A stretch of DNA of 61,172 nt from Candidatus Woesearchaeota archaeon. GTDB lineage: Archaea; Nanobdellota; Nanobdellia; SCGC-AAA011-G17; JACPNG01. Position numbers and translations under genes: made by a program. Position 1 is the stretch's first letter. Every line of letters starts with the position of its first letter. The DNA lies in NCBI GenBank assembly GCA_964455655.1, contig CAYVWZ010000001.1, positions 58,825-119,996 of the forward strand, given 5' to 3'. Below the pieces are notes generated by a model, which saw nothing but the letters and a program-made list of their open reading frames with translations, was not told the origin of the DNA and ran no database searches. Positions 13,372 to 53,405 of this stretch are shown one piece after another.

Positions 13372-14714
13372 CCGCGCTTTACACACTTTTCATATAAGTT
13401 CTTCTGAATACCTTTAGGATCATACTTCTTCTTTAATGCATCATAGACAGGTTTATTGTATAACCTCCAGAATTCATCCTCAGGATAATAAGAAGTGGAA
13501 TAGAGAGATTTCTTACCATTTAATTGAGAAACTTTTAGTTCTATTAATCGGTTATAATGACCCTCTTCAAATGTTGTAGGCATAACATCCCAAAAACCAA
13601 AATTAATGTACAACGTTAGAGGATCCATAGGATATAAGTCATACTTCACCTTAGGATCAACAGCCATTGTAGGGCAAACCCAAATAGGACGAATAGGTAT
13701 CGTTTCTAAAAAGAACCTCAAGAAAGTAGAACAATTTTTCAAAGGAAGCTCAACATCCTGCACAACAGACTCTTTCTTATCATTTTTAGGGAGAATCTGA
13801 CTTGCAAACCTACGTATCTTCCAATAGGACCTTGAGTTCAAAAAAGGCTTTGCAAAAAATCTCAGAACTTTGTTTTGAACACCAAAATGCTTTGAACACC
13901 AAAACCAATCAGTATCCCAACGCCAAATATAATCATGAACTGTTAAAAAATCCTGAGAACGCTTAGGAATTGTTTGATAAAAAATATTCATATACGTATA
14001 ATTACTTGTATACGGAGCAGAATCAACAAAATTAGCAGTAACAACATATAAGTCTTTTTCATTAAAAATAACACCATCAACAAAATCAAGAGAATTATCA
14101 ACACGCGCTTTCAAACACATTGCACCTAACTCAGCAAAATATGTTTCAGAATCAGTAAACTTATGATATTCTAACCTCACAAAAGGTTTTACAAGAACGA
14201 GTTTAACCTTTAACCTTAACGCATACCCTAAAGTACCATAGGAATTAGGAAAACCATAGAACAAATCACGATATTCATTCTTTGGCGTAGCAATAACAAT
14301 AGAACCATCAGGAAGCAATATTTCCATCTCAAGAATTGTTTCATGAACTAAACCAAACTTAAATGAAGAAGACTCAATACCAACACCAGTAACTGCACCA
14401 CCAATAGTAATAGTCTTTAATTGAGGAACAACCGTAGGCATACAATTATACTTTAATGTTTCATGAACTAATTCTTCATAAGTAGTCATACCCTCAACAT
14501 CAACCACTAAACTCTTCGAATCAACACTTAAGACTTGATTAAAATTCTTCACATCAATCTTTTTCTTCTTACCCTCAGCACGATAACGAAATAAATTAGA
14601 AGAAGACTTTTTCAAACCGAGAGAAACACCCTCTCTTGCAGCAGCTTTTACTTCATCAATAAGCTTTGACTTCTTCAATTCAAAAAGAGTATAGGGATTA
14701 ACGGACTGACTCAT
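13368..14714 (-). CDS. FAD-binding oxidoreductase, Rv3719/BfaA(TmsA)-like (DHCR24-related)
   Basis: SNLFR, VVPQLKTITIGGAVTGVGIESSSF, FPNSYGTLGY, WRWDTDWFWCS, VVQDVELP, GKKSLYS, KKKYDP match my recollection of the Rv3719 family; start moved to ATG 14714. Confidence 0.85.
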   Translation of the reverse strand: MSQSVNPYTLFELKKSKLIDEVKAAAREGVSLGLKKSSSNLFRYRAEGKKKKIDVKNFNQVLSVDSKSLVVDVEGMTTYEELVHETLKYNCMPTVVPQLKTITIGGAVTGVGIESSSFKFGLVHETILEMEILLPDGSIVIATPKNEYRDLFYGFPNSYGTLGYALRLKVKLVLVKPFVRLEYHKFTDSETYFAELGAMCLKARVDNSLDFVDGVIFNEKDLYVVTANFVDSAPYTSNYTYMNIFYQTIPKRSQDFLTVHDYIWRWDTDWFWCSKHFGVQNKVLRFFAKPFLNSRSYWKIRRFASQILPKNDKKESVVQDVELPLKNCSTFLRFFLETIPIRPIWVCPTMAVDPKVKYDLYPMDPLTLYINFGFWDVMPTTFEEGHYNRLIELKVSQLNGKKSLYSTSYYPEDEFWRLYNKPVYDALKKKYDPKGIQKNLYEKCVKRG

Positions 14715-15819
14715 ACCCACCGGGAACTCCGCCTTTTGAGAGCACAATCTGCCATAATTGGATCTTACGAGCACGGAATTGACCTGCTGATGTCATCAAA
14801 TAAAAACGCCACATACGATAGAATCGTTCACCATACTGCGCTTTATACTTATGCCAATTCTTTCTAAAATTAGCATCCCACGCGAGTAACGTCTTATCAT
14901 AATCAGGACCAAAATTATGCCAATCTTCTAAAACAAATAATCCTTCAAAAGCATTGGTTAATTGAACAGCAGAAGGAAGCATTGAATTAGGGAAGATGTA
15001 TTTGTTAATCCAAGGATCAGTATTCTTTACAGACTTATTTGTTGCAATCGTATGACACAAGAATAAACCACCTGGTTTTAAACAACTATATGCTAATTTC
15101 ATAAATTTACGATAATTCTTGTATCCAATATGCTCACACATACCAATAGACACCACCTTATCATATAGACCAGAAGCATCTCGATAATCAGCATGAACAA
15201 TCTTTACAGGAAGACCTTTTGTTATTTTACGAGCATATTCAACTTGCTCTTTTGAAATGTTATAAGAAGTAACCTCAACACCATACTTTTCAGCAGCATA
15301 CTTTGCAAAGCCACCCCAACCACAACCTAACTCTAAAACTTTTTCACCTTTCTTTAATTTTAGTTTTTTACACACAAGATCAAGCTTATTTTTTTGAGCT
15401 TGATTAAGATTTTTAGCATTCTTCCAATACCCACAGGTATATTGCATATAGTCAGGATCAAGCATATCATGATAGAAATCATTACCTAAATCATAATGTT
15501 CTTTCGCAACTTTCTGAGAACCACTACGCGATTGCATGTTTAATACCGTAGCACTGAGATAGAGTTTTATTGTAGCAAAAGAAACTAATTCTCTCTGCAC
15601 TTGCGCATTAAATAGACGCGTAAAAAACACATCAAGATCTTTTACATCCCACCATCCATCCATATAAGCTTCCCCAGCAGCTAATGTACCACCAGAAAAA
15701 ATTCTCCTATAGAGACGCTCATCATGAACTTGAATATCCCAAGGATGAGGACCATTAATCTTAATATCAGCTTTAGAAAGAAGCTTTTCAGCCTTCTTCT
15801 TATACACATTTTTAGCCAT
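14698..15819 (-). CDS. cfa: Cyclopropane-fatty-acyl-phospholipid synthase family methyltransferase
   Basis: HYDLGNDF, MLD..MQYTCGYW, AQKNKLDLVC.KL, LELGCGWGG, YIFPNSMLPS, EDWHNFGPDYDKTL.AW, ERF.RMW. Confidence 0.93.
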   Translation of the reverse strand: MAKNVYKKKAEKLLSKADIKINGPHPWDIQVHDERLYRRIFSGGTLAAGEAYMDGWWDVKDLDVFFTRLFNAQVQRELVSFATIKLYLSATVLNMQSRSGSQKVAKEHYDLGNDFYHDMLDPDYMQYTCGYWKNAKNLNQAQKNKLDLVCKKLKLKKGEKVLELGCGWGGFAKYAAEKYGVEVTSYNISKEQVEYARKITKGLPVKIVHADYRDASGLYDKVVSIGMCEHIGYKNYRKFMKLAYSCLKPGGLFLCHTIATNKSVKNTDPWINKYIFPNSMLPSAVQLTNAFEGLFVLEDWHNFGPDYDKTLLAWDANFRKNWHKYKAQYGERFYRMWRFYLMTSAGQFRARKIQLWQIVLSKGGVPGGYESVR

Positions 15820-29806: not shown

Positions 29807-31723
29807 TTATTGCGTAGGCTCCACCAAGAATACCATACGGACGCCACGCACTTTATTCTTAACCTGCACAATTGCTAATGCAACTTGATCAAGACCATCA
29901 GGAATAAACCCAATATCACATTCCACAATACCATCGCCAACAGCCTTTGCAGAAGCTGGATCAATATTAATACTTAATCCTGAAACAACACTGAGAATAT
30001 CAGCAAAGACCCCTAAACGATCTTCTACAACAACCCTCATCGTAATCCTCCCTTGATACTGCGCATTCCAAGAAGCAGTTAAGAGACTCTTCCTTGACTT
30101 TACAGATAAATGATCGCAACCCTTTACATGGACGGCATACTGATCGTTCGAAGAGAGATATGCTACAAGAGGCTGATTAGGAACGGGATGACAGCACCGC
30201 GAAAGTTTAATATGAGCATGAGGAACATTCTGAACTAAGACAAGACCCTCACCAAAAGAACGAGGAGGGATCTTACCTGTTGACGCAGGAAGTTGGCCAT
30301 GCTCACGTAAAAACTGACGGATTTTAGCTTTTGCCTGAGCAGTCTTTACAAATTTTAACCAATCACGATTAGGAGTAGCATTCTTACCTGTTAAAATATT
30401 AACAATCTCACCCGTTTTTAGTTCATAACGCAATGGAACCATACGACCATTTACCACTGCACCCGTAGCATGATCACCAATACTTGAATGAATCTTATAT
30501 GCAAAATCAATTGTTGAAGAACCCTTAGGAAGAGAGACAACATCCCCCTTCGGAGTCATAATATACACCTCATCATCAAACAAATCAATCTTTAAGAAAT
30601 CCATAAACTCAGCAGTATTTTGAGACTGTTGTTGGAATTCAAGAATATCTCTCAACCATGACAACTTCTTATCAAACTTCTTATCACCCTCAAGATGCTT
30701 ATATGACCAATGAGCAGCAATACCCTCCTCAGCAATCATATGCATATCCCTCGTACGAATTTGAAACTCAACAGGCTGCTTCAATGCAACAACAGCAGTA
30801 TGAAGTGATTGATAGAGATTCTTCTTTGGAGTAGCAATATAATCTTTAAACTTACCCTGAATAGGAGGCCAAATACTATGAATAATACCTAAAATTTCAT
30901 AACATTCCTTCACCGAATCAGTAATAACTCTTAATCCAATAAGATCATTGACTTCCTCAAACGTACGATTCTTCGTAATCATTTTTTTGTAAATACTATA
31001 GAAATGCTTAGGACGACCAACAATCTCAGCCTTAATACCATGAGCATCTAACTTTGCTTGTAATAATTCCTTAATACCCTTAATATCATTCTCTCGATCT
31101 TTTCTCGTCTTCCCAAAACGTTGCTTAAACTTTTGATAAATCTCAGGCTCTAAGACCTTAAAACTCAAATCTTCTAACTCCCACTTTAGAGAAGCAAGCC
31201 CTAAACGATACGCAAGAGGAGCATACACATTCAAATTCTCACGAGCAATACGCACTTGACGATCCCTCGGAAGCGCATCTAACGTTCGCATATTATGCAA
31301 TTTATCAGCTAGCTTAATCAATACCACACGCAAATCTTTAACAGAAGCAAGCAATAATTTACGAACAGACTCAGCATCCTCCTCTTCAACAGAAGTAGGC
31401 TTTAATTGCTTCATTTTTGTCACACCATCAACAAGCATAGCAATCTCATCAGAAAAATCACGACGAATATCAGCCAATGAATACTTTGTATCTTCAATAG
31501 TATCATGCAAGAGAGCAGCAGCTAATGTAGACTTGTCCATACGTAGTTTTGCTAACGTTAAGGTAACCGCAAGAGGATGACTAATATATGGCTCGCCAGA
31601 AACACGCTTAGCACCCTTGTGAAGCTCATCAGCCTTCATATAGGCACGCTGAACAATATCAACATCCTTCGGAGAGAGATATTTTACTAATTCTTGTCGT
31701 AGGTCATCAAAAGTCATGTGCAA
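29807..31723 (-). CDS. rel: Long RelA/SpoT homologue ((p)ppGpp synthetase/hydrolase with TGS, ZFD and ACT domains)
   Basis: HD domain ALLHDTIEDT, IKLADKLHNMRTL; synthetase GRPKHFYSIYKKM, KFKDYIA, YQSLHT, EFQIRT; TGS DFAYKIHS; CCHPVP; ACT DRLGVFADI. Confidence 0.95.
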   Translation of the reverse strand: MHMTFDDLRQELVKYLSPKDVDIVQRAYMKADELHKGAKRVSGEPYISHPLAVTLTLAKLRMDKSTLAAALLHDTIEDTKYSLADIRRDFSDEIAMLVDGVTKMKQLKPTSVEEEDAESVRKLLLASVKDLRVVLIKLADKLHNMRTLDALPRDRQVRIARENLNVYAPLAYRLGLASLKWELEDLSFKVLEPEIYQKFKQRFGKTRKDRENDIKGIKELLQAKLDAHGIKAEIVGRPKHFYSIYKKMITKNRTFEEVNDLIGLRVITDSVKECYEILGIIHSIWPPIQGKFKDYIATPKKNLYQSLHTAVVALKQPVEFQIRTRDMHMIAEEGIAAHWSYKHLEGDKKFDKKLSWLRDILEFQQQSQNTAEFMDFLKIDLFDDEVYIMTPKGDVVSLPKGSSTIDFAYKIHSSIGDHATGAVVNGRMVPLRYELKTGEIVNILTGKNATPNRDWLKFVKTAQAKAKIRQFLREHGQLPASTGKIPPRSFGEGLVLVQNVPHAHIKLSRCCHPVPNQPLVAYLSSNDQYAVHVKGCDHLSVKSRKSLLTASWNAQYQGRITMRVVVEDRLGVFADILSVVSGLSINIDPASAKAVGDGIVECDIGFIPDGLDQVALAIVQVKNKVRGVRMVFLVEPTQ

Positions 31724-31750
31724 AAATAAAATTAAAGGTTGTTTATATAG

Positions 31751-32083
31751 CTACTGACTTTTTGGGAGAAGCTTTTTTGCTATATCATTACATGGAGTGC
31801 TATCAATCTCAAACAAACCTTCTAAGGGAGAAGTTTGGGATACTCCATCAGGAGTAACAGTAACACGCGAATAACAAACTCTTATCCTTGGAGGAGTCCC
31901 ATTAACTTGAGGGATCATACTAAAAACTAAATATTCTCCTGAAGGATTTTTACCTCTTCCAGGCCCTCTATAGAGTTGAAGCCTCGATGGAGTATTAACA
32001 TCAATTCCTGGAGAAACTCTATATCGCTCTTCACTAAACCTTTCTGCTAATGGTCTAAAATGATCATTGACAATGCCATTCAT
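31751..32083 (-). CDS. Hypothetical protein (orphan-like)
   Basis: 110-aa ORF filling the gap, AT-rich box upstream. Confidence 0.55.
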   Translation of the reverse strand: MNGIVNDHFRPLAERFSEERYRVSPGIDVNTPSRLQLYRGPGRGKNPSGEYLVFSMIPQVNGTPPRIRVCYSRVTVTPDGVSQTSPLEGLFEIDSTPCNDIAKKLLPKSQ

Positions 32084-42091: not shown

Positions 42092-42137
42092 GATATCATG
42101 CAATAGACATTCATTAGAAATTCTTAAGAAAATTCCA
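42092..42137 (-). other. 3' arm of the pre-23S processing stem (pairs with 45013-45056), with BHB motif
   Basis: About 30-bp duplex GATATCATGCA...AGAAATTCT; central AGAA/UUCU helix flanked by 3-nt bulges. Confidence 0.8.
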
Positions 42138-42139
42138 TC

Positions 42140-45010
42140 GCACTATTAGTATGTGCAGGCTTAACATCTCGTTACCTTGATGCTTATACCCCACACCTAT
42201 CAAACGAGTGTTCTTTCTCGTGTGCTCCTTCTCTTTTCAAGGAGGGCTTCGTTCTTAGATGCTTTCAGAACTTATCCCGTAAGGCGTAGCTGCTCGACCT
42301 GCCTTGTCAGACAATCGATACACCAGTGGCCTCGAACCATCGTTCCTCTCGTACTAAATGGTCCTTCCCCTCAGAAGATCTGCAAATCCGGTAGATATCA
42401 TACAAACTGTCTCGCAACGTTCTTAACCCAGCTCGCGAACCCTTTTAATAAGTGAACACCTTCACCCTTGGCCGCTTCTGCACAGCCAGGATAGGATGAG
42501 CCGACATCGAAGTAGCAAGCAGCGCCGTCGATATGAGCTCTTAGGCGCTACGACTCAATTATCCCCGAGATAGCTTTTCTGTCATGTCTAGCCCCCATCA
42601 ATGAGGACATAGAAGTTCGCTAGACCCGACTTTCGTCCCTGGATTTCGTATTGTTTGAAATCCAGTCAAGCCAGCTTTTGCTCTTGCACTCTACAGAGGA
42701 TTTCTAAACCTCTTGAGCTGACCTTTGGGCCCTACTGATATCTTTTCAGCAGGGTCCCGCCCCAGGCAAACTGTCCGCCAGTAGCTGTCCTCCATAAGGA
42801 GTCAAGCGATGTAGAATGCAGAGGGTAGTATCTCACTGAAGTCTACACGTAAACTGGCGCCTACGCTTTAACGACTCCTACCTATGCTTAACACCACACT
42901 CCACACCGCAACCACAAGCTACAGTAAAGTTCTACGGGGTCTTCGCTTCCCACCGGAATTCTCTGGACTTTGCACCAGAAAGTTATGTTCGGGAGGATCC
43001 ATGTAAAGACAGTGGGGACCTCGTTACACCATTCATGCAGGTCGCCAATCAAGCGACAAGGCATTTCGCTACCTTAAGAGAATTATAGTTATTCCCGCCG
43101 TTTACTAGCTCTTCACTCCCTTGAAAAGAAGCTTAAAGTACTAGCACTGGGCAGATGTCACTTCCTATACAAACCATTACTGGCTAGCAGGAAGTTACGT
43201 TTTTGTTAAACAGTCGGGCCCCCTTAGTTATTGCATCCTGTACTCGCATTTTTACAACACAAGCGCAGGAACCCCTTATGCCGAAGTCACGGGGCTAAAT
43301 TGCCGAATTCCTTTACATAGTTTGTCCTCTCATACCTTGGGCTCCTCACCCAGGACACCTGTGCCGGTACTGAGTACGGATATAGATGATCCTTCTCGTC
43401 TGCTTTTTCACGGGCTCTAGGCCTCTACCTAACTAACAAACGCTAGCCACTCTAAGATTTTCTCAAGTTCTCACCATTACAGTACTCCCTTGACATATTC
43501 TTATTCGCAATCACGACAGTGATTGTAGGTATAGCCCCAAACGTCAGCATGACGAGCTTTCGTTACCGAGCGTACATCTATAGTACTGGAATATTAACCA
43601 GTTTACCTCTTCCCACGATTCTTATTAAGAATGCGGTTAGGACCGACTAACTCTTAGCTGATTTGCAGTGCTAAGAAACCCTTGTCCTTCCGGTATTAGA
43701 GATTCTCACTCTATATAGGTCCTACTACTACCAGGATACTTATTCGAACACGGTCCACCAACACTTACATGAAGGCTTCTATCCATGCACGACACCTGTC
43801 TACCACAACGTCTATTCGACGCATCTAGAGTATCGGTAGTTCATTTAGCCCCGTCCATTTTCGGGGCACTACACCTTGACGGGTGAGCTATTACGCTTTC
43901 TTTAAAGGATGGCTGCTTCTAAGCCAACCTCCCCGCTGTCTCTGGTGTAATACACCCTTCACCCTTTCACACTTAATGAACATTTAGGGACCTTAACTCT
44001 AGGCTGGGATGTTCCCCTTTTGGGACACACGCTTACCGCGCGCCCCTGATTCCCACCGTCTACGATGTTCCCACATTTGGAGTTGAACAAGAAGCCGAGA
44101 GATTTCTCTCCCAAAACCTCAAATCCGTCGCTCTACAATGAAAACTATCTCGGGTGAGACTATTCTGAGGCATATTTCGACAGGAACAGGCTATGAGCGA
44201 GTTCGATTGGCTTTTCACCCCTAATCCTGAGTCAGAAGAGCACATGTCCATAGCACCTCTTCGGGCCTCCACCCCATATTACTGAGGCTTCGCCCTGCTC
44301 GGGATTAGATCACCCGCGTTCCGGTCAGATCCCCGTGACTTAAGGCACTTTCACACCTCGCTCCTCGCAAGCTGCGAGCTTTCGCTTTCGCTCCGCGTTC
44401 GTACCGTTAGTACTTACGCTCGCCACGAAGACCAACTCCCTGGCCCGTTATTCAAAACGTACGGTGCAACTTTCGCCGCACCATTCTATAACCGTAAGGT
44501 TTCAGGATCTTTTCACACTCTGTCACGAGTGCTTTTCAATGTTCCATCACAGTACTATTCGCTATCGGACTCAAGACATATTTAGCGTTAGGAGTTGATG
44601 CCTCCCATATTCGTGCCTCATATCCAAGGGACACTACTCTTGATACTTGCCCATCTTTCACGATAATCCTACGGGGCTATCACCCTGTATCGCAAATCAT
44701 TCCAGATCACTTCGGATTACCATACGAAGACTTTATGCAAGTCACACCACATGTCGCTTCTATTTCTAGAAGAGATTCGGTTTGCGCTGAACGGTTTTCG
44801 CTCGCTGTTACTCACCGCATCTCGATTGATTTCTTTTCCTGCGGGTACTTAGACGCTTCAGTTCCCCGCGTTATATACCCTCTCGGGCTTAGAAGGAAGT
44901 CCTATTCAGGAATCTTAGGTTCGTAGGCCGCATGCGCCTCGCCTAAGCATTTCGTAGCTTGCCACGCCCTTCTTCTTTGTTCTTGAGCCGAATCATCCAC
45001 CTTACGGCGT
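42140..45010 (-). rRNA. rrl: 23S ribosomal RNA (ends approximate)
   Basis: Sarcin-ricin loop AGUACGAGAGGAAC, PTC GAUGUCGG, AGCGAAGACCCC; about 2.87 kb, so no large intron. Confidence 0.97.
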
Positions 45011-45164
45011 AGTGGATTCTATATAGAATTTCTAATGAATGCCTATGCATGATATCATGAAAATGAAAATCATTTTCTCTGCCTCGTAAGGCAATGATAT
45101 CCTTCACCCACAATCTTACGATTCGTGAGCTGCATCGATATGTGTCAAATTGATGACTATGAAA

Positions 45165-45276
45165 TGGACTCGTCGGGATTCGAACCCAAGACCTCCGCCT
45201 CACTTGGGAAGTCTTAGACTTTAATCTCAAACGTTTCCGTGCAAGGGCGGCGCTCTACCAGCTGAGCTACGAGCCC
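45165..45276 (-). tRNA. tRNA-Ala(UGC) with a 39-nt intron at position 37/38 (intron 45201-45239)
   Basis: GGGCUCG/CGAGUCC acceptor stem with G3-U70, anticodon UGC, T-loop UUCGAAU, canonical BHB (CUUG/CAAG central helix). Confidence 0.95.
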
Positions 45277-45362: not shown

Positions 45363-46835
<1,473 letters not shown>

Positions 46836-51656: not shown

Positions 51657-53405
51657 ATGAACCAAGAACAACTTGATGCATTACGTCATAGCACTGCGCA
51701 CTTACTAGCAGCTGCTGTACTCAAACTCTACCCTGATACAAAAAGAGCAATCGGACCAGCAATACCTGAAGGATTCTATTACGATTTTGAATTTAGCAAA
51801 CCAATCTCTGAAGAAGATTTAAAAAAAATAGAGAAAGAAATGGAAAAAATAGCACAGAGTTGGAAAAACTTTGAAAAAAAAGAAATAACACCAGCAGAAG
51901 CAAAAAAATTCTTTGCAAAAGAACCATACAAACTAGAACTTATTGATGAATTCAGCAAACAAGGACAAAAATTAACTCTCTACACCTCAGGAGACTATAC
52001 AGACCTCTGCAAAGGAGGACACACTGAACAACCAAGTAAAGAATTACGACATTTCAAACTACTCAAAATAGCAGGAGCATACTGGAGAGGAAATGAAAAA
52101 AATAAAATGCTCACCAGAATTTACGGAACAGCATTCCCCACAAAAGAAGAACTAACCAATTACTTAACACAATTAGAAGAAGCAGCAAAGAGAGACCATA
52201 GAAAACTAGGAAAAGAATTAGACTTATTCGTATTCTCAGAACTTGTTGGAGGAGGACTACCACTCTGGACACCAAAGGGAACAATTTTACGACAAGAACT
52301 AGACAATTTTGTTTGGGAAATGAGACAGGCAAGAGGATACCAACGTGTTGCAATACCTCACATTACTAAAAGAGACCTCTACGAGACAAGCGGACACTGG
52401 CAAAAATTCTCAGAAGAATTATTCAGAATAAAAACACGAGAGGGACACGAGTTTGCAATGAAACCCATGAATTGCCCCCACCATACTCAAATCTTTGCTC
52501 GATTCCCAAGAAGTTATCGAGAAATGCCACAACGCTATGCAGAAACAACAATGGTCTATAGAGACGAACAATCAGGAGAATTATCAGGGCTCTCACGAGT
52601 ACGCTGCATAACACAAGACGATGCACACGTCTTCTGCAGAAAAACACAAATCAAAGAAGAATTCTTCAAAATATGGGACATTATCAACAAATTCTATACA
52701 ACACTAGGATTTGAACTAAAAATAAGACTCTCATTCCACGATCCAGAATCATTTGAGAAATACCTAGGAACAAGAGAAATATGGAAAGAAGCAGAAACTG
52801 CAATAGAAAACCTTGCAAAAGATAGAAAAGTAAAATATTTCATCGCACCAGGAGAAGCAGCAATGTACGGACCAAAAGTTGACTTCTTATCACGCGACTC
52901 ACTAGGAAGAGAATGGCAAGTAGCAACAATACAATTAGATATGAACTTACCAGAACGCTTTGATTTATTCTGCATCAATGAGAAGGGAGAGAAAGAACGA
53001 ATTGTGATGATCCACGCAGCAATCATGGGATCTATAGAACGATTCACCTCTGTATACATAGAACACACCGCAGGAAGATTCCCACTCTGGCTATCACCAG
53101 TGCAAGTAAAAATTGTAACGGTAACAGACAGAAGTAATGATTATGCACAAGAGATAGGAAAAATGTTAACAGAAAACGGAATACGAGTAGAATATGATAT
53201 GGACGCAGACACTATCTCAAAGAAAGTAAGAACTGCAGAGTTACAAAAAATCCCCTTAATTCTAACTATTGGAGATAAAGAAGTAGAAACAAGAACACTA
53301 GCAATACGTCATAATGGAAAGAATATCTTCAATTACAAAATAGAAGCATTCTTAACAAAAATAAAAGAAGATATCAAACAAAGAAAACAAGAACTAGAAT
53401 TTTAA
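51657..53405 (+). CDS. thrS: Threonine--tRNA ligase, bacterial-type editing domain
   Basis: HSTAH, GFYYDF, DLCKGGH, RDHRKLG, KPMNCPHH, IHAAIMGSIERF. Confidence 0.96.
   Translation: MNQEQLDALRHSTAHLLAAAVLKLYPDTKRAIGPAIPEGFYYDFEFSKPISEEDLKKIEKEMEKIAQSWKNFEKKEITPAEAKKFFAKEPYKLELIDEFSKQGQKLTLYTSGDYTDLCKGGHTEQPSKELRHFKLLKIAGAYWRGNEKNKMLTRIYGTAFPTKEELTNYLTQLEEAAKRDHRKLGKELDLFVFSELVGGGLPLWTPKGTILRQELDNFVWEMRQARGYQRVAIPHITKRDLYETSGHWQKFSEELFRIKTREGHEFAMKPMNCPHHTQIFARFPRSYREMPQRYAETTMVYRDEQSGELSGLSRVRCITQDDAHVFCRKTQIKEEFFKIWDIINKFYTTLGFELKIRLSFHDPESFEKYLGTREIWKEAETAIENLAKDRKVKYFIAPGEAAMYGPKVDFLSRDSLGREWQVATIQLDMNLPERFDLFCINEKGEKERIVMIHAAIMGSIERFTSVYIEHTAGRFPLWLSPVQVKIVTVTDRSNDYAQEIGKMLTENGIRVEYDMDADTISKKVRTAELQKIPLILTIGDKEVETRTLAIRHNGKNIFNYKIEAFLTKIKEDIKQRKQELEF

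Follow-up and report, generated by a model that had tools for sequence, protein, structure and literature searches.

Introduction

Among the known systems closest to the gene reported here are the bifunctional Rel enzymes of Bacillota, long RelA/SpoT homologues (RSHs) for which structures exist from Bacillus subtilis (6yxa, 6htq), Staphylococcus aureus (7oiw) and as RelSeq (1vj7). Our subject is a rel gene in a stretch of 61,172 nucleotides, termed the window in what follows, from a Candidatus Woesearchaeota archaeon (assembly GCA_964455655.1, contig CAYVWZ010000001.1, positions 58,825 to 119,996). Its product has the domain order of the Bacillota enzymes, namely HD hydrolase, (p)ppGpp synthetase (SYNTH), TGS, zinc finger (ZFD) and RRM, and is 48% identical to B. 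subtilis Rel 6yxa (Foldseek). Like them it has an intact HD..ED motif, all synthetase residues and the TGS histidine (H420 in B. subtilis); its KFKD motif is basic in the manner of RxKD, without being identical to it. Unlike them it is without about 77 residues, and its zinc finger is more basic, with Gly and Arg positions replaced that are invariant in Bacteria; the host moreover has an archaeal ribosome and RNA polymerase, and the gene a TATA-like box and probably a leaderless mRNA.

Two further long RSHs are useful for comparison. Escherichia coli RelA (5iqr, 5kpv, 5kpx; PMC4974054) has the same TGS, ZFD (also termed RIS) and ACT/RRM folds, and the C-terminal superdomain of the archaeal protein matches 5kps_A; however, RelA combines a dead hydrolase with an ExDD motif, whereas the protein of the window combines an intact hydrolase with KFKD. 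The SpoT protein of Acinetobacter baumannii (7qpr; PMC9974481) is a full-length long RSH in which the C-terminal domains restrain catalysis off the ribosome, and the protein of the window matches it over residues 12-474 (phmmer E = 1.3e-69; Foldseek TM score 0.43). That SpoT is hydrolase-only and has its helical region, whereas the protein of the window has intact synthetase residues and is missing the helical core.

Genes of this family have been reported in archaea before. A 2021 study found RelA/SpoT in 69.0% of Diapherotrites, 41.7% of Woesearchaeota, 21.3% of Pacearchaeota and 19.0% of Nanoarchaeota, as a probable bacterial acquisition (PMC8407392). The rel gene of the window belongs to this DPANN set, and the bacterial origin predicted there agrees with our tree. 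That study gives percentages and a predicted origin only, and is silent on architecture, deletion in the alpha-helical (AH) region, residue conservation and mechanism. In NCBI, DPANN homologues are named ‘bifunctional (p)ppGpp synthetase/hydrolase’ or ‘RelA/SpoT family protein’. That these archaea carry the gene family is therefore not new, being both published and annotated, and an initial annotation of the window, which had described long RSHs as bacterial or plastid enzymes, was out of date on this point. Reviews on archaeal second messengers treat (p)ppGpp as undetected and unimportant in archaea. In the literature on long RSHs in archaea and on alarmones in DPANN we found only the statement of PMC8407392; two large Woesearchaeota genomics and transcriptomics papers do not mention rel, and no description of a clade-wide loss of the helical core was found. 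The AH-less architecture of this archaeal member of a known family seems to be undescribed.

We describe this architecture, its distribution and its likely origin, and we weigh what the enzyme may do. The explanation that we consider best overall is that rel is an old transfer from Bacteria encoding a bifunctional enzyme, that its C-terminal domains govern switching between the two activities, and that its outputs lie in translation factors and GTP; we assign this combination a probability of roughly 0.55.

Domain architecture and the missing helical core

The rel protein matches the NCBIfam model TIGR00691 (spoT_relA) with 683.5 bits, against a cut-off of 499.2, and in the genome-wide search it scores 635.9 bits, again above the cut-off. 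This match falls into two stretches, profile positions 1-451 and 538-679, with about 86 positions (452-537) unmatched between them. Pfam identifies the HD, synthetase and TGS domains (Table 1), and PF28438 (RelA_RIS) is present in the precomputed Pfam list for the protein; the ACT_4 and ACT models score 22 and 18.7 bits, under the gathering score of 27. Among solved structures the best phmmer match is B. subtilis Rel 6yxa (E = 8.6e-159, residues 10-475). An AlphaFold2 model built with 100 homologues has a mean predicted local distance difference test (pLDDT) of 83.4, and it contains zinc-finger strands and a beta-alpha-beta-beta-alpha-beta C-terminal domain at pLDDT of about 90. Foldseek places the catalytic half on S. 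aureus Rel 7oiw (TM 0.93, root mean square deviation 2.1 Å), the TGS domain on 3hvz (TM 0.97), and the last two domains on the C-terminal superdomain of ribosome-bound RelA, 5kps_A (TM 0.56).

Pfam, TIGR00691 and the AlphaFold2/Foldseek comparison thus agree with the initial annotation, in which the HD, synthetase, TGS, CC/ZFD and ACT domains had all looked intact. Using membership in TIGR00691 and the four-domain definition of Atkinson et al. 2011 to delimit long RSHs, the protein is one of them: the family score is above cut-off, and HD, synthetase, TGS and ACT/RRM domains are all present. Measured against the canonical six-domain set (HD-SYNTH-TGS-AH-ZFD-RRM), the ZFD is present, whereas the AH region is reduced to the first part of Linker Helix 1.

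Residues were compared in an alignment of 124 short-form proteins of the archaeal clade described below with 106 bacterial Rel proteins, and are numbered here on the 636-amino-acid (aa) form of the rel product. About 77 residues of bacterial Rel have no counterpart: Linker Helix 1 is cut to its N-terminal stub, losing its second half, and the AH core and Linker Helix 2 are gone. The stub has a helix at residues 460-472, and its P449, W453, A462 and I466 are invariant or nearly so in both groups. Some 20 poorly conserved residues then connect this stub to the zinc finger, and residues 476-489 have pLDDT below 50 and are predicted to be disordered. In the alignment to a mycobacterial RelA, residues 560 and 641 of the chain fall opposite the consecutive query residues 484 and 485.

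The size of the gap separates the two groups completely. Between W453 and C509 there are 56 residues in the protein of the window and 52-63 (median 58) across the archaeal clade; the equivalent bacterial spacing is 120-157 (median 135), with no overlap. The same deletion was found in none of the sampled bacterial Rel proteins (n = 106, minimum spacing 120, a sample drawn outside the candidate phyla radiation bacteria), and the bacterial matches have Pfam PF19296, which none of the short forms has. The initial annotation had put 25-40 residues between the post-TGS helix and the CC motif, and the measured interval is 35 (helix end 472, CC at 508-509); its suspicion that much of the AH region was deleted is borne out by alignment, profile gap and spacing, all of which show the AH core and Linker Helix 2 to be absent. 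In E. coli RelA the alpha-helical domain spans aa 485-580 and has three parts, the first being Linker Helix 1; the bacterial AH core of short helices packs close to the A/R tRNA's D stem, and Linker Helix 2 packs on the ACT domain (PMC4974054).

Catalytic residues, ligands and selection

Both active sites appear complete. The hydrolase residues R38, H47, H71, D72, E75, D76, D138 and N142, which include the HD..ED motif at 71-76, and the synthetase residues R235, K237, K245, D258, R263, K298, N300, Y302, H306, E317 and Q319 are all present, and each set is invariant or nearly so in both groups. The 6yxa alignment pairs D258, by its offset, with B. subtilis D264, and it pairs H410 of the TGS domain with B. 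subtilis H420, which corresponds to H432 of E. coli RelA. The 3′ CCA end of an uncharged tRNA has this histidine stacked on it, and activation is abolished when the residue is replaced (PMC7797070); H410 is kept in 124 of the 124 archaeal-clade sequences. The zinc ligands C508, C509, H530 and C534, the first of which open a CCHP motif at residues 508-511, are invariant in the clade save for C508 (120/124), and in the bacterial proteins H410 and these ligands likewise vary little or not at all.

Comparison with the 79%-identical closest relative gives a dN/dS of 0.20 overall (Nei-Gojobori), at a dS of 0.86, which is high but short of saturation. By region the ratio is 0.11 for SYNTH, 0.12 for TGS, 0.18 for HD, 0.27 for ZFD, 0.36 for RRM and 0.43 for the linker. 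Every domain of rel, the regulatory ones included, is under purifying selection, and TGS is the most conserved domain within the archaeal clade (0.62).

In a distinction reportedly drawn by Sajish et al. in 2007, bifunctional Rel proteins have a basic RxKD motif and RelA an acidic ExDD. The KFKD motif picked out by the initial annotation lies at residues 289-292 of the synthetase domain; it is basic like RxKD, though not identical to it. At the diagnostic positions (about 30844-30855 in the window) the archaeal clade (n = 124) has ExD in 52 proteins, RxK in 21, ExN in 13 and KxK in 7, the last including the protein of the window, whereas 101 of the 106 bacterial proteins have RxK. Most of the archaeal proteins with ExD keep the HD..ED hydrolase motif, a combination seen in none of the 106 bacterial proteins.

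With both active sites intact and no second RSH found by profile search in the genome (88% complete), a bifunctional enzyme is the economical reading. We consider it quite probable, from these residues, that the rel product is both synthetase and hydrolase: it would likely form (p)ppGpp from ATP and either GTP or GDP and then hydrolyse it. Another possibility is that Rel acts mainly as a hydrolase that scavenges alarmones from neighbour or host cells, with a synthetase of little physiological role. The HD site is intact, DPANN archaea do rely on partners for their nucleotides (PMC8407392), and in some families of the order all that is left are small HD-type proteins covering the first ~120 profile positions; yet the synthetase residues are as invariant as the hydrolase ones, SYNTH has the lowest dN/dS of any region, TGS, ZFD and RRM would be superfluous for a pure hydrolase, and most of the known DPANN hosts are archaea, a group not known to make (p)ppGpp. 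A scavenger of this kind is therefore improbable.

Distribution and origin

Matches to TIGR00691 occur in 74 of the 151 genomes of the order. At E <= 1e-60 they extend to 172 of the 401 genomes of the phylum (43%) and to 131 of its 281 genera, and several of these genomes are single-contig. Among the matches listed, nearly all complete frames are of about 600-700 aa, and in most the profile match ends at about 450-470. The genomes of one family of the same order (f19: G043, G061, G097, G108, G118, G126, G141) have no long RSH; they contain open reading frames (ORFs) of 116-203 aa whose match to the RelA/SpoT profile is confined to its first 80-150 positions, and that look like small HD-type, possibly alarmone-hydrolase-like proteins. 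Such a small partial-profile ORF is also carried by the Rel-bearing genomes G052, G020, G102 and G138.

For phylogeny, the named bacterial set was composed of Rel loci among the matches listed in a related-locus contig search, while the archaeal loci came from the genome profile search. In a maximum likelihood tree of 28 archaeal and 78 named bacterial proteins the archaeal rows form one clade (SH-aLRT 99), inside which the family codes f1, f4, f15, f31 and f74 each cluster. A FastTree tree of 230 rows likewise unites the 124 short forms in one clade, with support 1.0 and zero bacterial rows inside. The phylogeny against bacterial Rel that the initial annotation had proposed as a check thus places the archaeal short forms in a clade of their own, and the patchy recent transfer that it had named as contrary evidence is excluded, there being one clade that is present in 43% of the phylum and largely follows the taxonomy codes, with a dN/dS of 0.20.

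The archaeal clade groups with Thermodesulfobacteriota, Myxococcota, Nitrospirota, Acidobacteriota and Gemmatimonadota (SH-aLRT 97, from a quick search and to be taken with caution). Its stem, at 0.24, is not longer than the stems of several well-supported bacterial clades, and catalytic-domain identity is 0.51 between archaeal and bacterial proteins, compared with 0.58-0.60 within Bacteria. Long RSHs were not found in other archaea in a 2011 survey (PMC3153485). A single clade, a short stem, this level of identity and the negative survey result for other archaea together make one old bacterial transfer the most likely origin; the gene would then have descended mainly vertically, with many losses, and the deletion of about 77 residues would have happened once, at or before the base of the clade.

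Inheritance from the last universal common ancestor, with retention in the DPANN lineage and loss from nearly all other archaea, would also produce a single archaeal clade, and an unrooted tree permits a root on its stem. Such an ancient separation sits poorly with a stem as short as those of several bacterial clades, with a clade that groups among the bacterial phyla (Thermodesulfobacteriota, Myxococcota, Nitrospirota and Acidobacteriota in that quick search) and not apart from them, with a catalytic-domain identity near the within-Bacteria value, and with the lack of any long RSH from other archaea in the 2011 survey. We judge it very improbable.

Residence in an archaeal chromosome

The window carries an archaeal rRNA operon, in which the 23S gene is full, and also aIF5B, aIF2-gamma, an archaeal glutamyl-tRNA synthetase and RNase P p30. 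Its contig measures 120 kb, from a genome of 930 kb that is 88% complete with 0.4% contamination, and G+C at rel is 0.386 against a window average of about 0.36. The closest relative (L129), from a separate sample, shares the gene order MinD-like ATPase, HtrA-like protease, rel, 375-aa protein. In a genome of the same GTDB family (G035) the Rel protein is identical to NCBI MDD5254019.1, ‘RelA/SpoT family protein [Candidatus Nanoarchaeia archaeon]’, and further relatives lie on closed or near-closed chromosomes (e.g. G065, G159, G307). The rel gene is a resident chromosomal gene of a DPANN archaeon.

An identity of about 50% to Bacillota Rel over the N-terminal three quarters of the protein could raise the suspicion of contamination by bacterial DNA, of a chimeric assembly or of a transfer made very recently. 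We rejected all three as having a negligible probability: rel lies mid-way in a 120-kb contig among the archaeal rRNA operon and translation genes, its G+C is close to that of the window, 172 genomes of the phylum contain homologues, several of these genomes being single-contig, the gene order recurs in an independent sample, and the short architecture occurs in no bacterial sequence sampled.

Possible coupling to the ribosome

Several features speak for retained sensing of tRNA and ribosome: TGS is the most conserved domain and has an invariant histidine, the tRNA-proximal part of Linker Helix 1 is kept, the zinc ligands are kept, and the ZFD and RRM are more basic than in Bacteria. Median net charge in the archaeal clade is +7 for the ZFD and +2 for the RRM, compared with +2 and -1 in Bacteria, and the helix past C534 is Lys-rich in the clade. 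The ribosome contacts of RelA (A-site finger, uS19, uL16 and sarcin-ricin loop) have archaeal counterparts. The 47 residues from TGS to ZFD, if extended, might span some 100 Å by a rough estimate, so that geometry alone would not preclude the bacterial binding mode.

We propose that the C-terminal half still governs switching between synthesis and hydrolysis. In this mechanism H410 and the stub of Linker Helix 1 would read the 3′ CCA end and the acceptor arm of uncharged tRNA, the re-tuned and more basic zinc-finger/RRM pair would anchor Rel to rRNA, and the flexible linker of about 20 residues would stand in for the rigid AH elbow. Judged from sequence, the coupling to ribosome and tRNA has somewhat less than an even chance of being correct. 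The initial annotation had likewise proposed (p)ppGpp signalling on an archaeal ribosome, a step beyond what a sequence can demonstrate.

A number of points weigh against our preferred explanation. Loss of the AH core and Linker Helix 2 may abolish ribosome- or tRNA-dependent activation. Conservation of the ZFD is lower among the archaeal-clade proteins (0.36) than among the bacterial ones (0.56), and positions that are near-invariant in Bacteria are replaced across the clade, namely G497, the G-R-G loop at 524-526 and the Arg aligned to 544. Together with the Lys-rich helix these replacements suggest an altered binding surface; such divergence fits re-tuning and relaxed constraint equally well. 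The RxKD specificity motif is variable within the clade. The tree is unrooted, there being no suitable outgroup, and the direction of transfer rests on branch lengths and distribution. Finally, HGPRT (TIGR01203) and HflX (TIGR03156), two targets of the Firmicute type, gave no match in this genome, which is 88% complete.

Some of these points bear on a different account, in which Rel is an active enzyme uncoupled from the ribosome. The C-terminal domains would then serve only for autoinhibition or for responding to a different signal, for instance free uncharged tRNA, a partner protein or an amino acid held by the ACT fold, making Rel a homeostat of the SpoT type or of a cytosolic Rel type. Both the part that contacts the D stem (AH core) and the part that packs on ACT (Linker Helix 2) are gone, as this account would have it, and the ZFD has lost bacteria-invariant surface residues as well as conservation; bacterial Rel off the ribosome is, besides, mainly a hydrolase with weak tRNA binding (PMC7797070). 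It explains less readily why the CCA-reading histidine persists in 124 of 124 proteins within the domain that is most conserved (0.62, dN/dS 0.12), why the zinc ligands are nearly invariant even at their most variable position (C508, 120/124), and why the ZFD and RRM are more basic, which would suit a protein that binds RNA; the archaeal counterparts of the RelA contact sites also speak against it. We regard this uncoupled enzyme as possible, though on the doubtful side.

Possible targets

Under the explanation that we favour, with C-terminal control of switching, the likeliest outputs would be GTP-binding translation factors and the GTP pool, and not RNA polymerase. The initial annotation had proposed aIF5B and aIF2-gamma as plausible targets, both being encoded in the window. 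Their position lends this no support: they lie 24-27 kb from rel, past the rRNA operon and on the opposite strand. The neighbours of rel change between families, so that the co-location is a coincidence and no evidence. Bacterial IF2, the homologue of aIF5B, binds ppGpp. By elimination, and from this property of IF2, translational GTPases may still be seen as reasonable candidates. The guanylate kinase model Gmk (PF00625) also found nothing in the genome; it was equally silent in all archaeal controls, and its silence here carries little weight.

Start codon, promoter and neighbouring genes

Coordinates are collected in Table 1. In the six-frame ORF list the rel ORF runs over 29807..31723 (-) and encodes 638 aa from a TTG, which is simply the mechanical first start of that list; an ATG at 31717-31715 lies two codons inside it. 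A candidate archaeal TATA box, TATATAAA, sits immediately past the stop of the ORF preceding rel. Archaeal TATA boxes are usually centred at -26/-27 from the transcript start. The distance from box to ATG and this usual spacing would point to a promoter of its own for rel, a leaderless mRNA and a likely product of 636 aa; the length of 638 aa in the initial annotation holds for the listed ORF, but probably not for the protein. The 636-aa form is identical to the rel entry (P0001) of our protein collection.

Table 1. Features of the rel gene and its product, and other features of the window mentioned in the text. Residue numbers refer to the 636-aa form.
Feature	Position in window	Strand	Basis
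rel gene, long RelA/SpoT homologue, 636 aa	29807..31717	-	stop codon 29807-29809
TATATAAA, candidate archaeal TATA box	31742-31749	-	read from sequence; centre 28-29 nt upstream of rel ATG
HD hydrolase domain, residues 27-174	31196..31639	-	Pfam HD_4 1e-46
(p)ppGpp synthetase domain, residues 234-341	30695..31018	-	Pfam RelA_SpoT 1.6e-41
TGS domain, residues 384-443	30389..30568	-	Pfam TGS 2.1e-21; Foldseek 3hvz
Alpha-helical region remnant, residues 446-492	30242..30382	-	alignment to bacterial Rel; TIGR00691 452-537 unmatched
Zinc-finger/RIS (CC) domain, residues 493-545	30083..30241	-	PF28438 RelA_RIS; ligands C508, C509, H530, C534
C-terminal RRM/ACT domain, residues 546-633	29819..30082	-	TIGR00691 538-679; model fold; Foldseek 5kps_A; Pfam weak
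110-aa ORF	31751-32083	-	no Pfam match
Cyclopropane-fatty-acyl-phospholipid synthase	14698-15819	-	NF008686 equivalog, 562 bits
23S rRNA gene, full	42126-45024		
tRNA match, 112 nt	45165-45276	-	Rfam, 57.8 bits
16S rRNA gene	45363-46835		
Threonyl-tRNA synthetase	51657-53405	+	TIGR00418 (thrS), 673 bits; NF003068, 216 bits

Between the HtrA-like protease gene and rel lies a 110-aa ORF. It is missing from the closest relative, where the protease gene ends 50 nt ahead of rel, and it is either a lineage-specific insertion or not a gene. Across 17 loci no recurrent operon partner of rel was found, gene order being kept only between close relatives (the same genus, or L129). At three of the 17 archaeal loci, with three different family codes, rel adjoins the RNA polymerase operon (rpoH, rpoB'', rpoB', rpoA'): L113 (G008, of the same family as the window), L127 (G189) and L128 (G392). 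In L113 rel is downstream of this operon on the same strand; the rel gene of the window is not beside it. Adjacency to the operon could be the remnant of an ancestral position or chance.

The rel gene is apparently one of several bacterial acquisitions in the genome, judging by two other bacterial-looking genes of the window. The threonyl-tRNA synthetase scores 673 bits on the thrS model TIGR00418 and only 216 on NF003068 (cut-off 484), which we take to be the archaeal-type model, although the database names both models merely ‘threonine--tRNA ligase’; the cyclopropane-fatty-acyl-phospholipid synthase scores 562 bits on its equivalog model. The 16S-23S spacer has an Rfam tRNA match of 112 nt, presumably an archaeal tRNA with an intron, while ARAGORN reported no tRNA anywhere in the window.

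Significance

The window itself adds a limited amount, one more member of a clade whose family is already published and annotated, and the account given above is drawn from sequence alone. The value lies in the clade. Whether any archaeon uses (p)ppGpp is a question standing since the 1990s, and here about two fifths of the genomes of a major archaeal phylum have a single-copy, intact-looking Rel under selection, which makes a concrete test object. In this clade nature has, in addition, performed a deletion experiment on the Helical domain of long RSHs. If archaeal Rel still answers to uncharged tRNA, then the AH core is unnecessary for sensing; if it does not, then the clade shows how a stringent factor was rewired after crossing between domains of life.

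The most far-reaching version is one that we put forward tentatively and hold to be less probable than not by some way: that a genuine (p)ppGpp stringent response operates on the archaeal ribosomes of a large DPANN lineage (Nanoarchaeia, of the Woesearchaeales/Pacearchaeales type) by means of a naturally minimised Rel with an anchor re-tuned to archaeal rRNA, and that its signal acts on translational GTPases (such as aIF5B and aEF2) and not on RNA polymerase. If true, this would be the first alarmone system in Archaea, and the AH core would be dispensable for starvation sensing.

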